DNA of 20,000 nt. It comes from an uncultured virus (IMG/VR IMGVR_UViG_3300008113_011796). Its lineage: Duplodnaviria; Heunggongvirae; Uroviricota; Caudoviricetes. Position numbers and translations under genes: made by a program. The notes below the pieces were generated by a model. The model was given only the letters and a program-made list of their open reading frames with translations. It did not search any database and was not told the origin of the DNA. How positions within the stretch are numbered: position 1 is the first letter of the stretch; every line of letters begins with the position of its first letter. Positions 4,879-19,168 of the stretch are shown piece by piece. The stretch lies in IMG/VR virus record IMGVR_UViG_3300008113_011796; one strand, written 5' to 3'.

Positions 4879-5379
4879 ATGAGCATCATTATGACACACA
4901 ACGCAGTATTCGTCGGTAAGGCCGACACCGATTTCCAGAACGAGCGTTATAGCTTCTCTTGTAACGTAAGGATCGACGAGGTCGACGGTAAGAGTACCGC
5001 GGTTATGATGAGATCGTCAAACCAGGGTAATCTTAGGTCCAAAAATATAAAAGACATATTTTCATCTCTTGGTAAGTTGGAGAGGTTCGATATGGTGGTT
5101 ATCACTTCTATTTGGTCGAAGACGACAGTGTGTGATGTGTATGCGGTCGAGTTCGTTGACTACAAGAAAAAGGTCAGTATGAACGAGTTTAACGACCTTG
5201 GTTTAGGACCTAACATAGACGAGAGGCTCGAGGTTAGACTCAGTGGTGGTTGGACTATCGACGTAGGTAACCGCGACAAGCTCGCCGGCATAGTGGTCGG
5301 TTACGGCGAGCCGTTCCCTTCCGAGAAAGACCTCGCAGCGATACGTAGAGAGATGAAGTTAGGCGGCCTTCTTGGATAG
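4879..5379 (+). CDS. Hypothetical protein ending in IRREMKLGGLLG
   Basis: Open frame filling the gap; start uncertain (ATG 4879 or 4891); overlaps the convergent gene by 21 nt. Confidence 0.7.
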   Translation: MSIIMTHNAVFVGKADTDFQNERYSFSCNVRIDEVDGKSTAVMMRSSNQGNLRSKNIKDIFSSLGKLERFDMVVITSIWSKTTVCDVYAVEFVDYKKKVSMNEFNDLGLGPNIDERLEVRLSGGWTIDVGNRDKLAGIVVGYGEPFPSEKDLAAIRREMKLGGLLG

Positions 5380-5649
5380 CACCTCGATTACGTCGTCCAG
5401 GTCTACGTACCCAATGTTCCCGTCATTGTCCCTGACCGTCACCTTCGGCTTCTCCGCGGATCCTTCCTCGTCCACGTCAATCGGCTCGAGTTCCTCATCT
5501 TCTTTGTGGTCTTTCAGACCCTCAACGTTCCTGACCTTTATCTTCATTCCGTCGGAAATCGCCTTCTGTATGTGTTCCGGCGTGATGAGATCTCCCTCGC
5601 CGTTGTTGGCAACGAATGCCTCGTAGGTCATTATTCTGTCATTTTTCAT
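5359..5649 (-). CDS. Small acidic hypothetical protein with capsid-targeting-like N-terminus (MKNDRIMTYEAFVA)
   Basis: 96-aa ORF with phage-like codon usage; TAATATATA box 4 nt upstream on the minus strand. Confidence 0.8.
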   Translation of the reverse strand: MKNDRIMTYEAFVANNGEGDLITPEHIQKAISDGMKIKVRNVEGLKDHKEDEELEPIDVDEEGSAEKPKVTVRDNDGNIGYVDLDDVIEVLSKKAA

Positions 5650-5653
5650 GCTT

Positions 5654-5677
5654 TATATATTAAGATTGTAATATATA
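5654..5677. promoter_or_regulatory. Back-to-back TAATATATA boxes (putative phage late promoters)
   Basis: Minus-strand copy 5654-5662 and plus-strand copy 5669-5677, each exactly 4 nt from the ATG of its divergent gene (5649 and 5682). Confidence 0.65.
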
Positions 5678-5681
5678 GTGT

Positions 5682-7007
5682 ATGAAGCATTTGAGAAGAT
5701 TTGACGAGGAACTCGACCCGGGCGTCTACAGAAGGGCGGCGCAGGGCAAGGAGAAGGTACACGGCGACGTTGACGCCGCGAAGGCGCTCAGGGACTGGGC
5801 GAAGAAGACCGAGTCCGGTGGGATGGGCTACGACATAGTGTATACTTGTGTAAGAGAGGGACGTCCTCTTTACACTGGGATTGAATACACCGCGAACATG
5901 GTGAAGCCGACGGTGGCCGGTGTCTTCTTCGGATCGGTACTTGAATACCAGAAGAACAGGATTGGTGAGAACACGGCAGACTCTATACTGGCTGAATGGA
6001 AATCGGGTAGCAGGTCGCTATCGGTCAGTATGGTCGTGAACTTCGAGAAGACCGAGACCGTGGACAGGTCATGGACCTACGAGGTCACGATCATCGGTAG
6101 CAAGATTGGTGAGGCAAATGACCAAGTACAGACCTTCAGGATAGAAAAGGAACACGAGTCCTCGGCACAGACCGCACTCGGCCAGAGCATAAAGGCTGCC
6201 TACCCTAAGATCATAGGCAGTCCGCTTAGGAGCGACGCGGTGAGGTGGAAGCTTGTGAAAGGGCCGAAGCTCGGTGTCGTGAAGGGTGGCGAGATGATGA
6301 GTAAGATCAAGGGCGTGGGCTGGAGCACTGGGTTCCAAGACTATACGAGCACGCTCTCGACCTTCGTCATCGAGGTTAGGCTTTCCAGTTCGACCTACGG
6401 TATGGCCGACCAGTACGCCTGCGGCGCGTGCGGTGGCATGGTCACTATGGACTGCTACGAGTGCGACGGCGAGGGAACGATGTGGAGCGACGAGGCGGAC
6501 GACGAAGTTCCCTGCACGGTGTGCAACGGGACCGGCACGTTCACCTGCGAGGAGTGCAACGGCGAGGATTTGACGGCCAAAGTATCTCCGTTCAAGTTCT
6601 TCGAGGACACGTTCTCGCCTGAGGTCACGATGAGGCCGATACCCGGCAAACAGAACTACAACAGGGACGAGGTTTATTCGCAGTATCCTTGGATTGGCAT
6701 GTTCAGGACCAGGGACGACGCGAGGAGGTTCCTAAGCGACAACTTGGAGAGGCTCATAAACGAGGATCCTAGGTCGAAGTACGGAAAGAACGGAGGCGTA
6801 GGTTCCCTCTTCGAGGCGATCACAGACCTCGTGAAGGAGGCGGTCGACGTGAACGACGACAAGTCGATGGACTACATGCAACAGTCGATTTCGGCGGTGG
6901 AGAACATCAGCGTCGCTGCGATGGTTCAGGACAGCAGCGCCAATCTTGCGGTGAGATCTGCCAACAGAGACTTCAGGAACATATCGACTTACAGACCGAA
7001 AAAATAA
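5682..7007 (+). CDS. Hypothetical protein with DnaJ-type CxxCxGxG zinc finger and capsid-targeting-like N-terminus
   Basis: Four repeats CGACGG, CYECDGEG, CTVCNGTG, CEECNG (about 6420-6563); no J-domain HPD; N-terminus MKHLRRFDEELDPGVYRRAA. Confidence 0.8.
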   Translation: MKHLRRFDEELDPGVYRRAAQGKEKVHGDVDAAKALRDWAKKTESGGMGYDIVYTCVREGRPLYTGIEYTANMVKPTVAGVFFGSVLEYQKNRIGENTADSILAEWKSGSRSLSVSMVVNFEKTETVDRSWTYEVTIIGSKIGEANDQVQTFRIEKEHESSAQTALGQSIKAAYPKIIGSPLRSDAVRWKLVKGPKLGVVKGGEMMSKIKGVGWSTGFQDYTSTLSTFVIEVRLSSSTYGMADQYACGACGGMVTMDCYECDGEGTMWSDEADDEVPCTVCNGTGTFTCEECNGEDLTAKVSPFKFFEDTFSPEVTMRPIPGKQNYNRDEVYSQYPWIGMFRTRDDARRFLSDNLERLINEDPRSKYGKNGGVGSLFEAITDLVKEAVDVNDDKSMDYMQQSISAVENISVAAMVQDSSANLAVRSANRDFRNISTYRPKK

Positions 7008-7014
7008 ATAGACC

Positions 7015-7809
7015 ATGAGATACCTGAGAAGATACAACGAGGAGCTTGAGCCCTATACTTATAGAAAGGCAGCGGATCAACTAATAAAAAAGGGTAGGTA
7101 CCACAGAAAAAGAGGTGAGGATATGCAAGAATATGCATCTCTTGTCGATTGGAGAAGACTCAGAGACAGATGCAAGCGTGCCGGAATACTGACGCTTAGA
7201 CTCGAGACAAGTGTGAAGCCTCCAAGTGGTCAGGCAACCCCGGACTACGTTGGAGAGTTCCACCCTGTTGTTGGACTTGGACTCGATATGTTTTCGGAGG
7301 AGGTAGGAGTCAATATAGCCGAGGGTAACACCGACTTCACCGTCACACTAAACTGGTTCGTAAGTGCGGTTCCGACAACGGAGGAAGGCTATGAGCAAGC
7401 ACACGCTGCTGCCAAGAAGAGGGTTCAGTGGGTCAGGGCCAGGGGAGCATACGATAAGAACTATGGGTTTCCCCTGGCCTTCTTTCACTTTGACGTCATC
7501 TTCTCGGGTGGTAGCTACGAATTCGGTACGCCTCAGTTTTACTCCAGTGACGATATGCAAGTAGATGCGCACTTAGAGGACAGGTCTGGATCAGGAAGGA
7601 TCAGGTCCGAGATACTCTGGGAACTGGATGAGAAGTCCGATGAACCTCACATCATCTGGCTAGACGGCAAGAGGCACGAATTCACCAACGGTTTTGGCGC
7701 GTTTGAGGCAATTCTGCAGTTCTACGGGCTGTCGACCGACTACGGACTTGATTCAAAGGCAGTCTACGATTATGTGAAGAAGATACCGGGTAGTTTTTTC
7801 ACCTGCTAG
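7015..7809 (+). CDS. Hypothetical protein whose N-terminus is paralogous to the upstream gene
   Basis: MRYLRRYNEELEPYTYRKAA aligns with MKHLRRFDEELDPGVYRRAA; ATAAATA box at 7004-7010, 4 nt before the ATG. Confidence 0.8.
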   Translation: MRYLRRYNEELEPYTYRKAADQLIKKGRYHRKRGEDMQEYASLVDWRRLRDRCKRAGILTLRLETSVKPPSGQATPDYVGEFHPVVGLGLDMFSEEVGVNIAEGNTDFTVTLNWFVSAVPTTEEGYEQAHAAAKKRVQWVRARGAYDKNYGFPLAFFHFDVIFSGGSYEFGTPQFYSSDDMQVDAHLEDRSGSGRIRSEILWELDEKSDEPHIIWLDGKRHEFTNGFGAFEAILQFYGLSTDYGLDSKAVYDYVKKIPGSFFTC

Positions 7810-7837: not shown

Positions 7838-10195
7838 ATGAAGATATACAGTGACTTGGTTCTTGCCGGAGGGCTTACATACTCAAACACGATTGGAACG
7901 CACTCGTTTACGAGGAACATACAGAGCAAGGTTGTAGAGTCGGTTTCGGTGATGGACTTCGGTGCGAAGGGTAACGGTGTCAACGACGACTCTGCGGCCA
8001 TCAACCGCGCGCTGAACAACGTCATCTTCAAAGGCGGTGGGCAGCTTGTATTTCCTCCAGGAACTTACAGCATCGCTTCCCAGCTCGGGAAGAGGTGGAG
8101 TGGAATATCGGCGCAGAACGTGTCGCTTGATATAGTCGGGATTGATGCGACCATAGTGCCGTTGGTTCCTGTTCACACCTACGGTCTTTTCATAGGAGGC
8201 GACTTCAGGAGCGTTACAGTGAAGGATCTCGTCTTCGAAGGAAACTACATTCTCACTTCGGCACTCGTGATAGACGGATCCGGTGGGGTGACCCAATCCG
8301 GCGACATACTGGACTACTATGCGGACTCGATAGTGGTCGAGAACTGTAGGGTCTACAACCTTAGGGGCCTTACGCAATCTAGGGCAGAGATTTCGGGCAT
8401 AAAAGTCAGCAACGCGAGAAGCTGCATAATACGCAACTGCACGGTCGACGGCCTCGATCGATTGAGCTGGTTGACAAAGAGGGACCATAGTCTGTCTTGG
8501 GAGGACCAGACATTACCTGGTTACTGGATGGACGTGAGTGGGATATCGGCGATCGACTGCGACAGGCTGACGTTGTCGGACTGCATAATAAAGGACGTAA
8601 GCCACGGTAACTCCAGGAATATGAACCCGGAGGATCCGACTAAGCCGTTCCCAGGTAAGTGTATACCTGGTGGAACTTTCAGTACGTTCGGTACGCGTGA
8701 TGACGGTATCGGCACGAGCAAGTACCTGAGGCTCTACGACGCGAACGGCATCAGGGTCTACAACGGCCGCGACACGTTCAACAGAAGCCAGTATCTCAGG
8801 CAGCAGTCGATAATATCGAACAACACGATGATTGACTGCGAGAACAGGTACATAAAGCTACAGACCAACGGGCAGGCGATAATCGAAAACAACATATTCT
8901 ACCTGGGCCAGGATCCCAAGAAACCGGCCAAGCCCCTATGTGGATGGCAATGGGAAGGTCACCCTTTCTTCGGTGCGACACAGGGTAACGACAACATACC
9001 TTACCCTGGCGTTAGGATGGGCTCTCTTGCACTATTGATTGACTCTCAGATAGCCAACGTTAAGATTATGAACAACAAGTTCTACATCGACGACTACTTC
9101 GTGGGCAACAAAAACTCACTGTTCGACAATTTGGCGGCAGACGAGGAGGGTCTTACTGCGTCGGTCTACCTAGGGCATACCTACAGCAACGAATGGGCCT
9201 ACGGAGTAAAATTCTCATACAACGACAACGACTTCTCGCCACACGTCGTTCTTTTCCAGGCACCTTCGATTGCGAATATCGTCGAGCCGTACGAGAGCTA
9301 CTACTCGCAGTACGAGAACAACGAGCTTTACTCGACAAAGGTTTGGCGAAACGGTATAGGAATACAACCACCTAGGGCTGGTTCGACCTCGAGCATCTAC
9401 ACGACCATAAAGAACAACATACACTCGTCAAACGCCTTATTCTCGAGCAGCACGCTGAACTCGAGAGAGGACGTCGCACATAAGTACTTCCTGCGCGCGA
9501 CCGTGCCGTACGGACCGAGCGCTGCCTCTGGTCAGTGGATACTGGACGTCAGTGGCAACAAGCTATACACATACGAGATGAGCTACTTCTCGCTCAGTGG
9601 TACGTACAGCAGCACCGACGCTAACGGAAACACGCTCACCGTGGAGCAGCAGGCTCAGCTACCGAGGGACTACTCTAACAACTGGACCTGGCTGTTCTAC
9701 GACAACTTCAGGTATCCGCAAGCCGGTAACAACGAGGTGATAAGGTCCGGCTACGTGGTCTTGCCGGGTGAGACGATGCCATCAACTGCGTCGGCAGCAG
9801 ATATGTCTCCGTTCACAAGCAACATGCTGATTAGGAACAACGTGATAGGCGACGTAGAGGGCCAAATATCTTTTCCGTTCGATATGAAGAAGCTCGTCGA
9901 CGGCTGTGACTTCGCGATTGCCGGCAGCAGCACCTTCTTCAACAGGACCCTTGTAGACCTACGTCCTAAGAACGTGCCCAACGACGATGCGTATACCTAC
10001 AACACGTCCGTCCTGAACTCCAGGATCTACAAGCAGGGCAACTTCACGTACCTCGACGGCCCTTACAGGCTATACAGGTCGCGCAACTGCGTCACCTGGG
10101 ACCATATGAGCTACGGCCACTCTTCGCCGACATGGTCGAACGGCGGCGTAAGCACTCCTATTTCGGCGACGTTCCCCTCGGAGAACCCCCTTTAG
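7838..10195 (+). CDS. Right-handed beta-helix (pectate lyase 3-like) tailspike/polysaccharide depolymerase
   Basis: RNIQSKVVESVSVMDFGAKGNGVNDDSAAINRAL...GGGQLVFPPGTY is the canonical Pectate_lyase_3 start; many IxNN/VENC beta-helix rungs; Asn/Ser/Gly-rich. Confidence 0.82.
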   Translation: MKIYSDLVLAGGLTYSNTIGTHSFTRNIQSKVVESVSVMDFGAKGNGVNDDSAAINRALNNVIFKGGGQLVFPPGTYSIASQLGKRWSGISAQNVSLDIVGIDATIVPLVPVHTYGLFIGGDFRSVTVKDLVFEGNYILTSALVIDGSGGVTQSGDILDYYADSIVVENCRVYNLRGLTQSRAEISGIKVSNARSCIIRNCTVDGLDRLSWLTKRDHSLSWEDQTLPGYWMDVSGISAIDCDRLTLSDCIIKDVSHGNSRNMNPEDPTKPFPGKCIPGGTFSTFGTRDDGIGTSKYLRLYDANGIRVYNGRDTFNRSQYLRQQSIISNNTMIDCENRYIKLQTNGQAIIENNIFYLGQDPKKPAKPLCGWQWEGHPFFGATQGNDNIPYPGVRMGSLALLIDSQIANVKIMNNKFYIDDYFVGNKNSLFDNLAADEEGLTASVYLGHTYSNEWAYGVKFSYNDNDFSPHVVLFQAPSIANIVEPYESYYSQYENNELYSTKVWRNGIGIQPPRAGSTSSIYTTIKNNIHSSNALFSSSTLNSREDVAHKYFLRATVPYGPSAASGQWILDVSGNKLYTYEMSYFSLSGTYSSTDANGNTLTVEQQAQLPRDYSNNWTWLFYDNFRYPQAGNNEVIRSGYVVLPGETMPSTASAADMSPFTSNMLIRNNVIGDVEGQISFPFDMKKLVDGCDFAIAGSSTFFNRTLVDLRPKNVPNDDAYTYNTSVLNSRIYKQGNFTYLDGPYRLYRSRNCVTWDHMSYGHSSPTWSNGGVSTPISATFPSENPL

Positions 10196-10203
10196 AAATA
10201 AGT

Positions 10204-10241
10204 ACAAAAGAGAAGAGGCCTAATGGCCTCTTCTCTTTTGT
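10204..10241. terminator. Long perfect inverted repeat / terminator
   Basis: ACAAAAGAGAAGAGGCC-TAAT-GGCCTCTTCTCTTTTGT, 17-bp stem just after the stop at 10195. Confidence 0.85.
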
Positions 10242-10280
10242 CGCCTATTTTCTTATCTTAGCAGGACGATATATACAGAC

Positions 10281-11453
10281 ATGAAGAAGATAATGAGATA
10301 CGGCGGATTCCTGGAGAGCAAGTCGGCGGAGATGCCGCTGCCGCAGGACGTCATAGACATAGCCGACGCGTACCAGCGCGCGGGAAAGGAGATCTACGTG
10401 GTCGGCGGTGCCGTCAGGGACTTCAAGAAGGGCGTCGAGCCGAAGGACTACGACCTGGTGACGAACGCGCTGCCGGAGGAGTCCAAGCACATACTGAAGG
10501 GGTTCAACGTGTCCGACGAGCAGGGCAAGAACTTCGGCGTGCTCCGGGTCTACACCAAGGCGGAGCCGGAGGGCTATGAGATAGCGACCTTCCGTAGGGA
10601 CATTGCGAAGGGTCGCGACACCAAAGGCGACGATCAGAAGGTAGAGATGGGGCCTGACGTCACCATCCAGGACGACGTGATGAGGCGCGACCTCACGATG
10701 AACGCGCTGTTCTACGATATAGCGAAGAAGGAGATAGTCGACCTGGTCGGCGGCATAGACGACATCGAGAAGGGAAGGGTCAGCGCCGTCGGCGACGCGG
10801 GCCAGAGGTTCCTGGAGGACAGGCTTCGAATAATGAGGGTGTTCAGGTTCGCCGCTAGGACCGGAGGCCACATAGCGGACAAGACCGCCGACGCGATACG
10901 CAAGGACAACCGCCTACGAGAGGTCGGCCCCACCGACGACGTGTCGCAGGAGAGGATCTGGGAGGAGATGGTGAAGGCCTGGAAGCAGGCGAAGGACTAC
11001 TCTCAGTACCTAGGATACTTCGACGAGTTCGATATGTGGGGCCAGGTCTTCCCGGGCGTGACGGTCTCTTCTCCTGTCGACAGCGCGGACTTCGCGGTCG
11101 TGATCGCGTCTCTTCTCAGGGACAATCCGGCCGACTACCTCGACAGGAAGCTGGTGCAGGATTTCCGCATCGACACGCCGCTCGCCAAGAAAGTCGCGTT
11201 CCTGGTATCACTCAGGGACTTCGACGCCGAGTCGGTTCTGGATTACTGGAGGAAAAGACAGTCCTCCGGTGTGACCTACGAGACGATACTCGAGTGGCTG
11301 ACCAAAACGGCAAGCCAGAGACAGGATCTCGTAAGGTTCGTCGCATGGAGGCCTTCCGTGAAGTCCGAGGAGCTTATGTCCAGGGGTTTCAAAGGAAAGG
11401 CATTGGGTGAGGAGATAAAGAGGCTCGAGGTGGAAAAATTCAAATCCGAATAG
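10281..11453 (+). CDS. cca: Class II tRNA nucleotidyltransferase (CCA-adding-type), no HD domain
   Basis: VGGAVRD...DYD (motif A), EIATFR, RRDLTMNAL (motif B), EDRLR (EDxxR template motif), ERIWEE, C-terminal GFKGKALGEEI; lacks the GRRF-type poly(A) polymerase signature (has QGKNFG). Confidence 0.88.
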   Translation: MKKIMRYGGFLESKSAEMPLPQDVIDIADAYQRAGKEIYVVGGAVRDFKKGVEPKDYDLVTNALPEESKHILKGFNVSDEQGKNFGVLRVYTKAEPEGYEIATFRRDIAKGRDTKGDDQKVEMGPDVTIQDDVMRRDLTMNALFYDIAKKEIVDLVGGIDDIEKGRVSAVGDAGQRFLEDRLRIMRVFRFAARTGGHIADKTADAIRKDNRLREVGPTDDVSQERIWEEMVKAWKQAKDYSQYLGYFDEFDMWGQVFPGVTVSSPVDSADFAVVIASLLRDNPADYLDRKLVQDFRIDTPLAKKVAFLVSLRDFDAESVLDYWRKRQSSGVTYETILEWLTKTASQRQDLVRFVAWRPSVKSEELMSRGFKGKALGEEIKRLEVEKFKSE

Positions 11454-11465
11454 AATATATACGAC

Positions 11466-11942
11466 ATGGCTATAAAGAGATACGACGGGTTCAGAGAGTC
11501 TGCCGACTACACCCTTGCGATGGTGAACCAGATGGCTGAGTTCGACAGGTACCAGACGCCGCAGCTCAACACCGTCGACAAGAAGTACAACGAGGACCTT
11601 ACTCGGTTCCTATGGGACATCGCCGACGTTAAGAGGATAGACGCGATAGGTGGCACCGAGGCGAAGCCTGGTATGAGGAGGTACAGCATCGACGAACTGG
11701 TCGACTTCGAGGACGTGGTCCATATGGCGCCGACCGGCATCGCCTGCGGAATAAAGGTCTGCAAGTACCCGATGGGATCCTATATGGAGTATCAGACCTG
11801 GCCAGGCGGCTACATCGAGGGCTTCATAAGAATGGACAGCGACGACGCGAGGTTCGACGAGTACTTCGTCTGGACCTATATTCGGATGGAGCACCTCAGA
11901 AATATAATAGAGAGGTTCGATGGTAAGATTAAGTTGTTTTGA
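11466..11942 (+). CDS. Hypothetical protein with capsid-targeting-like N-terminus (MAIKRYDGFRES)
   Basis: 158-aa ORF; ATATATA at 11455-11461, 4 nt before the ATG. Confidence 0.8.
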   Translation: MAIKRYDGFRESADYTLAMVNQMAEFDRYQTPQLNTVDKKYNEDLTRFLWDIADVKRIDAIGGTEAKPGMRRYSIDELVDFEDVVHMAPTGIACGIKVCKYPMGSYMEYQTWPGGYIEGFIRMDSDDARFDEYFVWTYIRMEHLRNIIERFDGKIKLF

Positions 11943-12373
11943 AAAATTGGATTGATATGTTTAACAAGGTTGATTTTGTAAAGGATTCGAAGGGAATGAC
12001 CCTTCTTTCGATGCAGTTGGAGCCATCTGTCGTGCACGGTCATCTCGAAGACGAGAAGGCGGCTACTGGTGATTACGAGGTCGTTGTCGTGGACTCGGCA
12101 GAGTGTTTCAAGCTCACGAACGAGATTGGTATGAAGTCGCTTGTCGAGGCAGTTCGCAGGTTCCAGGCCATCGAGATAGACGACCTGGTTTTTGGCGAGG
12201 TGGAAATCAATGAAGGCGATGGCGTTTCCAGGTTCTCGGTGAGCTGCGACTCAGAGAAGCTCCACTCGTTCAGGAACGTTCTTGGCCTGCCGGTCGTTGA
12301 GTTCGAGTTGGGCTTCGAGGTAAGCAAGCAGTCAAAGGGCAGAAAGAAGGAAAACACTAAAAGCGATATATAG
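11939..12373 (+). CDS. Hypothetical protein, possibly a degenerate 2H-phosphoesterase-like fold
   Basis: TTG start overlapping the upstream TGA (TTGA coupling); alternative ATG at about 11957. Segments YEVVVVD...EIDDL...VSCDSEKL..FRNVLGLP..EFELGF recall phage 2H phosphoesterases but without HxT motifs. Confidence 0.6.
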   Translation: MKNWIDMFNKVDFVKDSKGMTLLSMQLEPSVVHGHLEDEKAATGDYEVVVVDSAECFKLTNEIGMKSLVEAVRRFQAIEIDDLVFGEVEINEGDGVSRFSVSCDSEKLHSFRNVLGLPVVEFELGFEVSKQSKGRKKENTKSDI

Positions 12374-12715: not shown

Positions 12716-12780
12716 AATATGTTTTATATTTAAGGTATTTGGCACGGCATGTGTTTGTTAGTTGCGTAATATATAAGTCA

Positions 12781-13050
12781 GTGAAAAAGATGATTTTGGT
12801 CATATCGATGCTACTCTGTCTTCCTGTGTTCTCGCAGGCCAGGAAGAAGCCTGCCAGGTTGGTTCGGGACAGCGTGGTCGAGATACTTTACACCGACGGA
12901 ACCAGGAGGAAGATGGTCTGGGTGAACGACAGCACCGTTATGCTCGTGATCACGGACCTGAAGGGACGTCCGTTCTCGAAGGCGTACGTCGATCCGGAGT
13001 TCGCCGAGAACCAGAGAAGGATTTATTTCATAATAAAAATAGAGGAGTAG
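12781..13050 (+). CDS. Small secreted/periplasmic protein with Sec signal peptide
   Basis: GTG 12781 (or ATG 12790) gives MKKMILVISMLLCLPVFS|QARKK: basic n-region, hydrophobic core, VFS cleavage site; ATATATA at 12769-12775, 5 nt before the GTG. Confidence 0.7.
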   Translation: MKKMILVISMLLCLPVFSQARKKPARLVRDSVVEILYTDGTRRKMVWVNDSTVMLVITDLKGRPFSKAYVDPEFAENQRRIYFIIKIEE

Positions 13051-14093: not shown

Positions 14094-15251
14094 ATGAGTA
14101 ACGATTTAGCGACAAAGAATATGGAAAACACGAAAGCAGGCAGTATGCCGCAATGGATGCTTGATAAGCTCCACTTATTGACAGACAAGGAAAGTGAGTA
14201 CTTGTCATTGATGTGGCCTAAGTACGGCGTTTTGTTCATCACGGCTAAGCCTGGTGTTGCGAAGTCTGCGATTGGTTTGTCTATCGCTAAGAAGTTAGGC
14301 ATGAGGTATATCGACATGCGTTTGTCGATGTCCGACGAGGGTGACTTCAAATACCCTTACTTGGAGGACTTGGAGTACGACGGCAAGACGTACAAGGTTT
14401 CTGGCTACGCAGTTCCGCGCTGGGCCTTCGACGCCAACCAGACACCGACAATCATCCACTTCGAGGAGTTGAACCGTGCGCCTCAGTTCGTGAGAAACGC
14501 CGCGTTACAAATCCTTTTAGAGCGCGAGATTGGAGACTTCAAGTTCAACGACAACGTGTTGATGATGGCGTCGGGTAACTTAGGTGACGAGGATGCTACA
14601 GACGTAGAGGAGTTCGACGCTGCCTTGAACAACCGTCTTATTCACATCGACCACGTGTTGGCAGTGAACGAGTGGATCGAGGACTTCGCCAACGAGAAGT
14701 GTCACCGCTTGATCGTTAGCTACATCAAGACACACCCAGAGCAGTTGTACAAAACTTCAGACAACGCCAAAGGCTACGCAACGCCGCGTTCCTGGACGAT
14801 GATGTCGAAGTTCATCACTGAGAACTTCGGAATTGAAGCAGACCCGAGAGAGTTCTTGCCACGCTTGAGAAGAGTAGCACACGGCTACGTAGGAAACTCG
14901 GCTCACAAGTTCCTTCAGTACTGCGAGGACATGATGAACATCAGCATCCAGGACGTGTTGAACAACTACGACGGCATCAAGAAGGACTTGGCGAAGTACA
15001 ACCGCGACAAGAACTCCGAGTTGATCCAGTCCTTGAAAGAGTTGAACATCCAAGATTTCACAGAGAAGCAGCTTGGTAACATCGTGAAGTTCTTGAACGG
15101 TGTAGGCGACGACGAGAAGACAGCGTACTTGTTGTGGATACTTGACAACGTGCCGAACATCGGCGAGCCGAAAATCAAGAAGTTCTTGCTCAAGTTCGAA
15201 GACCTCTTGAGAACCATCAAAAAAATCAACAAGCCTGGTTCGGCTAAATAG
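14094..15251 (+). CDS. MoxR-like AAA+ ATPase (AAA_5-type), probable partner of the DUF2201-VWA protein
   Basis: Walker A-like AKPGVAKS, YIDMRLS, Walker B-like IIHFEELNRA, sensor-1 MASGN, Arg finger DAALNNR, ATPRSW. Confidence 0.88.
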   Translation: MSNDLATKNMENTKAGSMPQWMLDKLHLLTDKESEYLSLMWPKYGVLFITAKPGVAKSAIGLSIAKKLGMRYIDMRLSMSDEGDFKYPYLEDLEYDGKTYKVSGYAVPRWAFDANQTPTIIHFEELNRAPQFVRNAALQILLEREIGDFKFNDNVLMMASGNLGDEDATDVEEFDAALNNRLIHIDHVLAVNEWIEDFANEKCHRLIVSYIKTHPEQLYKTSDNAKGYATPRSWTMMSKFITENFGIEADPREFLPRLRRVAHGYVGNSAHKFLQYCEDMMNISIQDVLNNYDGIKKDLAKYNRDKNSELIQSLKELNIQDFTEKQLGNIVKFLNGVGDDEKTAYLLWILDNVPNIGEPKIKKFLLKFEDLLRTIKKINKPGSAK

Positions 15252-18284: not shown

Positions 18285-18292
18285 TATATTTG
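18285..18292 (+). promoter_or_regulatory. -7 element TATATTTG
   Basis: Consensus -7 box directly after the terminator and 15 nt before ATG 18308; -33 element not evident. Confidence 0.55.
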
Positions 18293-18307
18293 TCTAAACT
18301 AAAAGAT

Positions 18308-19168
18308 ATGGCAGAATATAGCAGAGATAGATTGTTCGAGCAGCTTGACCAGCTGAAGATTTACAAATCGGGTGGCACGGTAATCACCGAGCACAGAGGT
18401 CGCGTCATCAACAGCACCGACGTGTCCGAGAAGTACGAGATATTCGACATCGTGAAGTACTTCAAGGAAAGGATCGACGAGATTGAGAAGTCGTTCACTA
18501 TCGACAAGTACTTCCTTACAATCAAAGGCGGTAAGCAGACATTGGACCTTGTTTCCGAGGAGGTCGAGATTGCCGGCAAGAAGTTTCAGAAGACCTTCCA
18601 TATGCAGAACTCAACTGACAGGTCGCGCAGGTTGAGTTTCAACACGGGTCTGTACAGCGTAGACGACAAGTACGTGATCATAAGTGCGGTGAACCGAATA
18701 AGCCTACACAAGGCGCACGTGAAGGGAGTGACGAAGGCTGCCGAGGACGCCAGCAACGGAATATCAGCGGAGACCTTCGACGAGCAGATCGCGTCTTTGA
18801 ACGAGTTGGTTGGCCACAGGGTCGCTTTCTCTAAGATACGTGGTGTAATACTCGGCGACGACGAGAAAGTGCCTCAGATCGCGCACAAACGCTTCGACAC
18901 GTTCGTCGCTTCGTTGAGGTCTGCTAGTCGTGCTGAGATAACTCGCGAGGACTACAACAGGTACAAGTTCCCGAGACAGAGGTCAGAGTACGTGAAGGAG
19001 ATAAAGTCCGTGGACGACTTCTTCATCGACGCCTTCGACGTGATAATGTGTTATCTTAGAGCCTTCGGTGGACAAGAGACACACGTAATCAAGAACGAGT
19101 CAGAGAGAATAATGAAGATCACTCAGTGGTCGGTCAGAAACGACGCGCTGGCGATGCTAGGAATATAA
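18308..19168 (+). CDS. DUF932-like phage protein (divergent)
   Basis: ATG 18308 preferred over TTG 18290, which lies inside the -7 box. MQNSTDRSRRLSFNTGLY...HKAHVKG resembles the DUF932 NSxDxS...G...H core. Confidence 0.55.
   Translation: MAEYSRDRLFEQLDQLKIYKSGGTVITEHRGRVINSTDVSEKYEIFDIVKYFKERIDEIEKSFTIDKYFLTIKGGKQTLDLVSEEVEIAGKKFQKTFHMQNSTDRSRRLSFNTGLYSVDDKYVIISAVNRISLHKAHVKGVTKAAEDASNGISAETFDEQIASLNELVGHRVAFSKIRGVILGDDEKVPQIAHKRFDTFVASLRSASRAEITREDYNRYKFPRQRSEYVKEIKSVDDFFIDAFDVIMCYLRAFGGQETHVIKNESERIMKITQWSVRNDALAMLGI

Follow-up and report, generated by a model that had tools for sequence, protein, structure and literature searches.

This report concerns a stretch of 20,000 nucleotides of DNA (hereafter the window) from an uncultured virus of the Caudoviricetes (IMG/VR record IMGVR_UViG_3300008113_011796), and in it a plus-strand gene at 10281-11453 that encodes a class II tRNA nucleotidyltransferase of 390 residues, probably a CCA-adding enzyme, with the N-terminus MKKIMRYGGFLES. 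Its first 17 residues (MKKIMRYGGFLESKSAE, 10281-10331, plus strand) form a leader in which Y7 and F10 are invariant and after which a conserved MPLPQD runs into helix 1 of the enzyme. An ATATATA box (10269-10275, plus strand) stands 5 nt before the ATG; it is promoter-like, and judging from a related genome (see below) it would be of a late type. Further upstream a hairpin with a 17-bp stem (10204-10241), terminator-like on both strands, lies between this gene and that of a tailspike-like protein. On the other side a second ATATATA box (11455-11461, plus strand) is found 4 nt before the gene at 11466-11942 (plus strand), whose 158-residue product has no assigned function, begins with a leader of the same type (MAIKRYDGFRES) and matched nothing in a homology search. 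The original prediction for this locus was that the enzyme is made late, packed inside virus particles and injected, so that tRNA ends can be repaired or matured before phage genes are expressed.

The window has a G+C content of about 50% (0.55-0.82 at third positions) and a phage-type gene content, mostly co-oriented; it contains no tRNA genes. A megablast of the whole window against 50,697 phage records found no near-identical record, and the DNA runs that contain the stretch are labelled mainly as freshwater and lake metagenomes, and also as "fungus". The best matches of the CCA protein are in two uncultured huge-phage genomes, one of 634,780 bp (LR745206.1, hereafter W01) and one of 642,428 bp (W02), with 48% and 40% identity, respectively, over residues 4-388. 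The window phage is most likely a Mahaphage-type huge phage, the hosts of which are predicted to be Bacteroidetes. Gene order flanking the CCA gene is kept in both W01 and W02, but the tailspike-like gene (7838-10195, plus strand) is not found there; it encodes a beta-helix protein with Pfam pectate-lyase-like and PHROG tail-spike matches (E 1.4e-12) and without such a leader. The placement of the enzyme next to a tailspike and leader-bearing genes, as noted earlier, is real, but the adjacency of the tailspike is incidental and, since that gene is absent from the syntenic blocks of the relatives, carries no weight.

That the protein is a complete class II nucleotidyltransferase with an intact EDxxR was confirmed. 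All five motifs are present in the 390-residue ORF (open reading frame), the Pfam head domain PolyA_pol (PF01743) covers residues 38-167 (E 6.2e-29) and a PHROG match is named "tRNA nucleotidyltransferase" (E 4.5e-54). Homologues were collected as the 120 closest sequences (63-100% identity) and more distantly by a profile-free search of 1.84 billion representatives, in which 454 were found at E <= 1e-30 and the best 150 were inspected; an alignment of 47 close homologues and a deeper one of 84 sequences were used. The branch to which the window protein belongs is divergent and mostly of metagenomic origin. In the 47- and 84-sequence alignments G42, G43, V45, R46, D47, D56 and D58 of motif A (GGAVRD, 42-47, and DYD, 56-58) are invariant or nearly so, and RRD (135-137), EDRLR (179-183) and ER...E (224-229), which correspond to motif B (RRD), motif D (EDxxR) and motif E (ER...E), are conserved in both. 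An AlphaFold2 model from the 84-sequence alignment reached a mean predicted local distance difference test score (pLDDT) of 91.6 and a predicted template modelling score of 0.87; it replaced a first model, from the 47 close homologues, whose head domain was below pLDDT 50 and which was unusable for the leader.

The sequence by itself does not settle whether the enzyme adds CCA or poly(A), and motif D alone does not separate the two activities. A poly(A) polymerase, or an enzyme that adds only A or only CC, would be in keeping with two results: the best solved-structure match by sequence is the E. coli poly(A) polymerase 3AQM (E 1.2e-29, as against 3.4e-23 for the best CCA enzyme), with which the protein shares its head domain, and the top NCBIfam model is the PcnB subfamily TIGR01942. 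However, the score for this model (158 bits) is under its cut-off of 305.65, a second PcnB model, NF008634, is likewise missed (119 versus 702 bits), and Pfam at E <= 0.01 gave the head domain only, with neither PolyA_pol_arg_C nor any other PcnB C-terminal domain. The equivalog models of CCA enzymes are missed as well (PRK13299, 130 versus 290 bits; PRK10885, 102 versus 451; others lower). Over the whole chain, the fold is nearer to the CCA-adding enzymes: the top Foldseek matches were the full-length CCA-adding enzymes 6QY6, 6QXN, 4X4W and 1MIV (TM, the template modelling score, 0.60-0.68; root-mean-square deviation 5-7), with the E. coli poly(A) polymerase 3AQL/3AQM lower (TM 0.55, deviation 11). 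The modelled head-neck-body-tail architecture is complete, with about 380-415 columns aligned to 6QY6, 4X4W and 1MIV. Between the catalytic strand and RRD the model has a long loop of low confidence (pLDDT 62 at residues 111-120), and a loop in this position is needed for A addition in CCA enzymes. Surroundings rich in tRNA and RNA repair genes also argue against poly(A) synthesis. Thus, the enzyme is most likely CCA-adding, and an A-only, CC-only or poly(A) specificity is distinctly unlikely. Compared with solved class II CCA enzymes (1MIV, Planococcus 6QY6), with which it has the catalytic motifs and the four-part fold in common, it differs in its leader of about 17 residues, in reaching no NCBIfam equivalog cut-off and in having no HD domain.

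A CCA enzyme as such is an expected gene for a huge phage. Excerpts of two papers, one on huge phages (PMC7162821) and one on jumbo and huge phages with many tRNA and RNA-repair genes (PMC7824862), agree with the earlier statement that large phages encode CCA-adding enzymes, and these phages resemble that of the window enzyme in having genomes rich in such genes. In W01, ARAGORN found 59 tRNA genes, none of which encodes its CCA. The enzyme would build or rebuild the 3' CCA of tRNAs, with the many tRNAs of the phage itself and host tRNAs damaged at the 3' end as its substrates. The W01 tRNA genes lie in arrays at about 342.5-344.0, 364.9-369.3, 387.9-390.3 and 406.9-408.1 kb (loci L023-L026), and all 59 end with the discriminator base and a single C, followed mostly by AAA. 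A conserved C74 without C75 and A76 is odd, and may be a hint on how these tRNAs are processed. Among the best 150 distant relatives of the enzyme, 51 have long N-terminal fusions. The 30 of these 51 that were scanned contained cREC, HAD_SAK_1 with HD_4, HD (three), 2H/Acb1-like, Fic and ankyrin domains, so that the fusion partners are largely RNA-end-healing domains.

Several lines of evidence indicate that the first 17 or so residues are a real addition that lies outside the enzyme. When aligned with bacterial and phage CCA enzymes, the leader precedes the first helix of the cellular proteins, as had been suspected: residues 5-184 of the B. stearothermophilus enzyme (1MIV) align with residues 21-210 of the window protein, in the model of which helix 1 comprises residues 22-33 and residues 1-13 are below pLDDT 50, the remainder being confident. 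Two enzymes of cultured phages are leaderless, as are the solved structures; that of a Brevundimonas phage begins at about window residue 17 and that of a Cronobacter phage at the first strand. Apparent leaders on the enzymes of GAP31-like phages (alignment from residue 2) were discarded, because the annotated genes start later and the extension is a read-through into the upstream ORF. The distant relatives in which the domain is near the N-terminus (99 of the best 150) are mixed: 24 start no more than 30 residues before GGxVRD (41 in the window protein), typically with M-x-[IL]-P-x-D, whereas 21 have a leader with the spacing aromatic-x-x-aromatic and four have a different leader, MNLLREYI[KR]E... 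By eye, all 120 closest homologues have extra residues before helix 1, although a few gene calls start at an internal methionine of the leader, and in 116 of them the motif LP[QN]D begins at least 11 residues in (four were not matched by the regular expression). Y7 and F10 are invariant in the 47-sequence alignment, and the codons vary where the residues agree; the serine after FLE is encoded by AGC, AGT, TCA or TCT in different copies and leucine by CTG, TTA or TTG, which argues that selection acts on the protein.

Leaders of other kinds were also seen. The MNLLREYI[KR]E... leader is carried by P0174, P0188, P0228, P0263 and others, from other lineages, and again contains aromatic-I-x-E; the version of such a peptide that this enzyme bears may thus vary from one group of phages to another. 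A 595-kb huge phage (LR756511.1, L042 2845-4371) encodes a CCA-type enzyme with an N-terminal extension of about 90 residues that begins MRTTFLEFMGLKE. In a 636-kb phage (LR756504.1, L043 59-2986) the CCA-type enzyme has no leader, and two large neighbouring paralogues start with M..V[RK][TS][YW]G.FLG.LNH.G.

The leader is also one copy of a portable N-terminal tag, found on about a tenth of the proteins of this lineage. That it is common to neighbouring genes was borne out in the window, where four ORFs besides the CCA gene begin alike, making five in all. Apart from the gene at 11466, these encode a 96-residue protein (MKNDRIMTYEAF; 5359-5649, minus strand; ATATATA box at 5654-5660 on the same strand, 4 nt from the ATG), a 441-residue protein with the variant-1 leader MKHLRRFDEEL (5682-7007, plus strand; box at 5671-5677, 4 nt from the ATG) and a 264-residue member of a paralogue family with the variant-1 leader MRYLRRYNEEL (7015-7809, plus strand), homologues of which were found only in two uncultured huge-phage records. 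Around the enzyme in W01 and W02 nearly every ORF has a similar N-terminus. The ORFs of W01 come from a simple script that took the first ATG, required 60 residues or more and chose greedily without overlaps; as it worked per 20-kb piece, genes crossing pieces were lost. It gave 866 ORFs that cover 85% of the sequence. A strict form of the tag, M-[KR]-x-[LIV]-[KRNST]-x-[FY], begins 77 of them and a second, M-I-x-K-K-Y-x-x-F-I-x-E, a further 18. Together these make 95 of 866 ORFs (about 11%), as against 0-1 at six internal control offsets; a looser pattern also gave 95 ORFs, against 10-17 at control offsets.

Most tagged proteins are of no known family, with no Pfam match at E <= 0.001 in 83 of the 95 found with the looser pattern. 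Those that can be recognised in W01 include the CCA enzyme, an Rnl1-type RNA ligase, a 2H phosphoesterase with an RNase T-like exonuclease, NFACT-R and DHH proteins, each with residues 23-39 as the point after which its domain first begins. PHROGs was searched with every W01 ORF of 230 residues or more (228 in all), and classes were formed from those that could be classified by function. The tag occurred on three of ten RNA-related proteins and on none of the structural (0/7), lysis (0/5), DNA-metabolism (0/20), methyltransferase (0/9) and other (0/20) proteins, i.e. 3/10 versus 0/61 (Fisher p 0.002, with classes assigned post hoc). A tag of the nuclear-import type was set aside, given that none of the 20 DNA-metabolism proteins is tagged. 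Tagged genes are clustered, 45 of the 95 having a tagged neighbour where about 20 would be expected.

As had been noted, the CCA gene is preceded by an ATATATA box, and this motif is strongly enriched in the window, with nine occurrences versus 0.69 expected (none of 200 shuffles reached nine). All nine are co-oriented with the downstream gene; by coordinates, eight are intergenic and the one at 12366 lies in the 3' end of the preceding ORF. The longer ATATATAC occurs twice (10269 and 11455) versus 0.19 expected, a count of two being reached by seven of 200 shuffles. The gap between box and ATG is 4-5 nt for the four box-bearing tagged genes of the window and 14-32 nt for untagged ones. The 32-nt intergenic region 5650-5681, which separates two divergent tagged genes, has two boxes on opposite strands, each at a distance of 4 nt from one of the start codons; this leaves no room for -35 elements.

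In W01, where the motif extends to the consensus TTAATATATA, 206 of the 866 ORFs have the box in the 40 nt before their start, and the gap is sharply bimodal (4-5 nt and about 18-30 nt). It precedes 4/7 structural genes (portal, capsid, sheath, decoration) and 3/5 lysis genes, compared with 5/20 for DNA metabolism, 1/9 for methyltransferases, 2/10 for RNA-related and 4/20 for other genes; that is, 7/12 structural and lysis genes versus 12/59 other annotated genes (p 0.012). This enrichment before head, tail and lysis genes agrees with late synthesis. The box also precedes 47/95 tagged ORFs versus 164/771 untagged ones (odds ratio 3.6, p 1.8e-8). In contrast, TAnnTTTG, the Bacteroidetes -7 promoter consensus, is rarer before tagged ORFs (7/95 versus 121/771, p 0.03). 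It is not enriched in the window overall (nine versus 6.8 expected), where TATATTTG or TACATTTG lies upstream of the untagged genes at 1010, 2625, 13074 and 14047 and not of the CCA gene. Indeed, neither a sigma-70-like site nor a TAnnTTTG match was found just upstream of the CCA gene, in agreement with the view that it is not behind a host-type promoter. We infer that the box is a phage-specific element akin to the -10 element of T4 late promoters, in which case a gap of 4-5 nt would give a leaderless, or nearly leaderless, mRNA.

The tag resembles the capsid targeting sequence (CTS) of phage T4. According to excerpts of PMC5694885 and PMC3012670, the CTS is a propeptide of 10-20 residues by which unrelated proteins are brought onto the prohead's scaffolding core, and the T4-type prohead protease removes it by cutting after Glu (PMC5694885). 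The T4 record gives the N-terminus as MKTYQEFIAEA for IPII and IPIII and as MKTFKEFTST for IPI; the core of tag form 2, Y-x-x-F-[ILV]-x-E, is the pattern of these internal proteins, with [KR]-Y-x-x-F-[ILV]-x-E of the tag matching MKTYQEFIAE of IPII and IPIII. Y..F[ILV].E occurs within the first 14 residues of 12 of the 866 W01 ORFs, versus 0.52 expected from its internal frequency. Many CCA homologues carry it too (for example ...KKYNQFITEN), although the motif is so short that common descent is not demonstrable. As with the T4 CTS (IPI, IPII, IPIII, Alt), a short N-terminal peptide is found on otherwise unrelated proteins, it ends in the Glu after which T4-type prohead proteases are described to cut (PMC5694885, in excerpt), and the genes that carry it cluster in variable regions.

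Like T4, moreover, W01 and W02 may encode a protease and scaffold beside the capsid gene. Between the portal gene and the major capsid gene, directly upstream of the latter, both have a protein of 707 residues (W01, L044 6047-8170; W02, L038 1447-3360) that looks like a protease-scaffold fusion. Its N-terminus has a weak match to Peptidase_S77, the family of T4 gp21 (PF03420; E 1.1e-4 and 1.8e-5, which do not reach the cut-off), the middle part consists of about twelve 14-residue repeats, YSEY[LI]AENLDKNI, and a very acidic stretch follows. The HK97-type protease PF04586 is absent from W01 and W02. Each scaffold repeat contains [LIV]-x-E, as do the tags, and this fits the cutting rule of T4-like proteases. 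There are also clear differences from the T4 CTS: about 95 ORFs are tagged in a genome such as W01 rather than a handful, there are two variants (MK[YH][LI]Kx[FY]... and M-I-x-K-K-Y-x-x-F-I-x-E), the cargo would include RNA-repair enzymes, the predicted host belongs to the Bacteroidetes, the tag copy on the window CCA enzyme lacks one residue of the pattern, and packaging and cleavage are only putative for the tag.

Taken together, four independent lines (a portable add-on tag, the match to the T4 CTS pattern, the T4-like protease-scaffold of the relatives and a box shared with head, tail and lysis genes) make it plausible, with chances close to even, that the tagged proteins, and the CCA enzyme among them, are loaded into the capsid. 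Under this explanation the enzyme would be transcribed from a late-type ATATATA promoter along with the head and tail genes, its tag would dock it on the scaffolding core of the procapsid, a T4-type prohead protease would cut the tag off after Glu, and at the next infection the enzyme would enter with the DNA beside other tagged RNA-repair enzymes. Late timing, docking, cleavage, presence in the virion and injection are all steps that we infer. A fuller version, which we put forward more tentatively, is that Mahaphage-type huge phages pack a tRNA-repair kit into their virions by means of a T4-like tag on some 100 proteins, and that the injected kit undoes defences that cleave tRNAs or trim their CCA before phage genes are expressed. 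Its members may be the CCA-adding enzyme, the Rnl1-type RNA ligase, the 2H phosphoesterase/exonuclease and the NFACT-R and DHH proteins.

CCA enzymes of jumbo and huge phages, injected enzymes and the CTS are each already known. Excerpts of PMC5512222 describe head-packed enzymes ("polyvalent proteins") that are injected and act before phage gene expression; these, T4 Alt and the N4 virion RNA polymerase share with our proposal the concept that enzymes travel in the head and enter along with the DNA. The distant relatives of the nucleotidyltransferase in 1,000-2,700-residue proteins with HD, 2H, Fic or ankyrin domains resemble polyvalent proteins, whereas the window enzyme, of a single domain family and with a short tag, is not a fusion. 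In a term search of PMC5512222, "CCA" had 0 occurrences and CCA-adding enzymes did not appear among the domains listed. A literature search, which did not cover supplementary files (possible sources of virion protein lists), found neither a virion-borne CCA enzyme, of which the original prediction likewise knew none, nor an N-terminal tag system in huge phages.

A number of observations count against virion delivery. An ordinary cytoplasmic role, the maturation of 59 phage tRNAs that lack CCA, suffices to explain the enzyme without any packaging, and the scores described above that favour PcnB, or miss the CCA equivalogs, bear on the proposal as well. A cargo of 95 proteins is far above that of any known CTS system and would be unprecedented. 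The leader in the window (RYGGFLES, with Y-G-G-F-L-E) is one residue shorter than the T4 pattern, which places Phe at P3, where T4 gp21 sites have Ile or Leu. The Peptidase_S77 match is below the cut-off and comes from the relatives, while the window itself holds no head genes. That the tag might mimic the scaffold repeats was considered and dropped as too weak, since a position-specific scoring matrix of the tag ranked the best scaffold window 50 of 148,812, with the repeats in the top 0.18%. The box precedes DNA-metabolism genes too (5/20), so that the label "late" is statistical rather than clean, and no box lies within 45 nt of the CCA orthologue in W01. Finally, the tagged neighbours at 7015 and 11466 matched nothing beyond the two uncultured huge-phage records, the ORF calls of W01 are crude, and the functional classes were assigned after the fact.

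One may also consider other destinations or causes of the tag. It could be an address or docking peptide for a hub other than the capsid (the ribosome, for instance, or else an assembly for RNA repair or a viral factory), with the CCA enzyme acting only in the infected cell. This would explain why RNA or the ribosome is the target of every tagged protein of known domain (the CCA enzyme, Rnl1, 2H with RNase T-like, NFACT-R and DHH) and why the tag is concentrated on RNA-related proteins (p 0.002), and it would suit both the clustering of tagged genes (45/95) and the fact that, by coordinates, several W01 clusters flank tRNA arrays. The RNA theme, however, comes from a handful of proteins, as 83 of the 95 have no known domain, no hub protein was identified, and both the match to the T4 CTS pattern and the link with a motif that precedes head, tail and lysis genes would go unexplained. 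We regard such a hub as unlikely, though not negligible.

Very unlikely, in our view, is that the shared N-terminus is a by-product of translation initiation, in which leaderless mRNAs, or mRNAs with very short leaders, that start from a box 4-5 nt before the ATG favour certain first codons. The sharp peak at 4-5 nt in the bimodal W01 gaps, the same gap in the four box-bearing tagged genes of the window (14-32 nt in untagged ones) and the enrichment of the box before tagged ORFs are what one would expect under this scenario. Yet conservation is at the level of amino acids, across very different G+C contents, with Ser encoded by AGY or TCN, Leu by CTG, TTA or TTG, and Y7 and F10 invariant; about 75 untagged W01 ORFs have an equally short gap, 47 of the 95 tagged ones have no box, and tags also occur with gaps of 19-27 nt. 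A still more remote idea is that the tag acts at the N-terminus as a signal for degradation or regulation, by which a phage Lon-like or ClpP-like protease, or one of the host, would control the lifetime of accessory proteins. W01 does encode a Lon-like ATP-dependent protease (phrog_4871, E 3.8e-250) and, separately, a 245-residue protein that matches head-maturation/ClpP-like protease PHROGs, and the tag is a short, exposed and disordered N-terminus. Nothing, however, ties either protease to the tag, there is no obvious rationale for a degron on a tenth of the proteins, enzymes included, and neither the T4-CTS-like pattern nor the association of the box with structural genes would be accounted for.

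If the tag is a capsid-loading signal, the largest known phages would inject a much wider range of proteins than any phage studied so far. Enzymes that repair the translation apparatus would then be among the first weapons delivered, which would change how we view tRNA-targeting defences and the counter-defences of phages. In that case candidate virion cargo of uncultured huge phages could also be listed by a simple rule of sequence, and the tag may be a portable peptide with which to put foreign proteins into capsids, as is done with the T4 CTS. Should its destination be another, a sorting signal on a tenth of a phage proteome would still be undescribed biology.

The other genes of the window include those for three DNA methyltransferases, a MoxR-type ATPase, a DUF2201 VWA/metallopeptidase protein, a cREC domain protein, a bifunctional-nuclease/UVR protein and a PD-(D/E)XK nuclease, besides the beta-helix tailspike-like protein. 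The cREC_REC (cyclic-phosphate-processing receiver) domain of the protein at 542-985 was found with E 1.1e-20; P0161, one of the relatives of the CCA enzyme, has the same domain as a fusion, which links this gene to RNA-end repair. The MoxR-type AAA ATPase (14094-15251) and the DUF2201 protein (1048-2562) are both kept in W01 (522980 and 511257), and the pairing of such an ATPase with a VWA protein is of a known type. The PHROGs label of the DUF2201 protein, "HNH endonuclease", is apparently a mislabel; the protein has a long low-complexity insert rich in Gly, Gln and Glu. It also has clusters of CxxCxGxG-type cysteine motifs, as does the tagged 441-residue protein at 5682-7007, and in both we take these to resemble DnaJ-type zinc fingers. 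For the ORF at 18290-19168, the listed TTG start overlaps a promoter-like TATATTTG motif at 18285-18292, so that its true start is probably a downstream ATG. Similarly, the probable start of the ORF at 12739-13050 is the ATG at 12790, which opens a signal-peptide-like MILVISMLLCLPVF.

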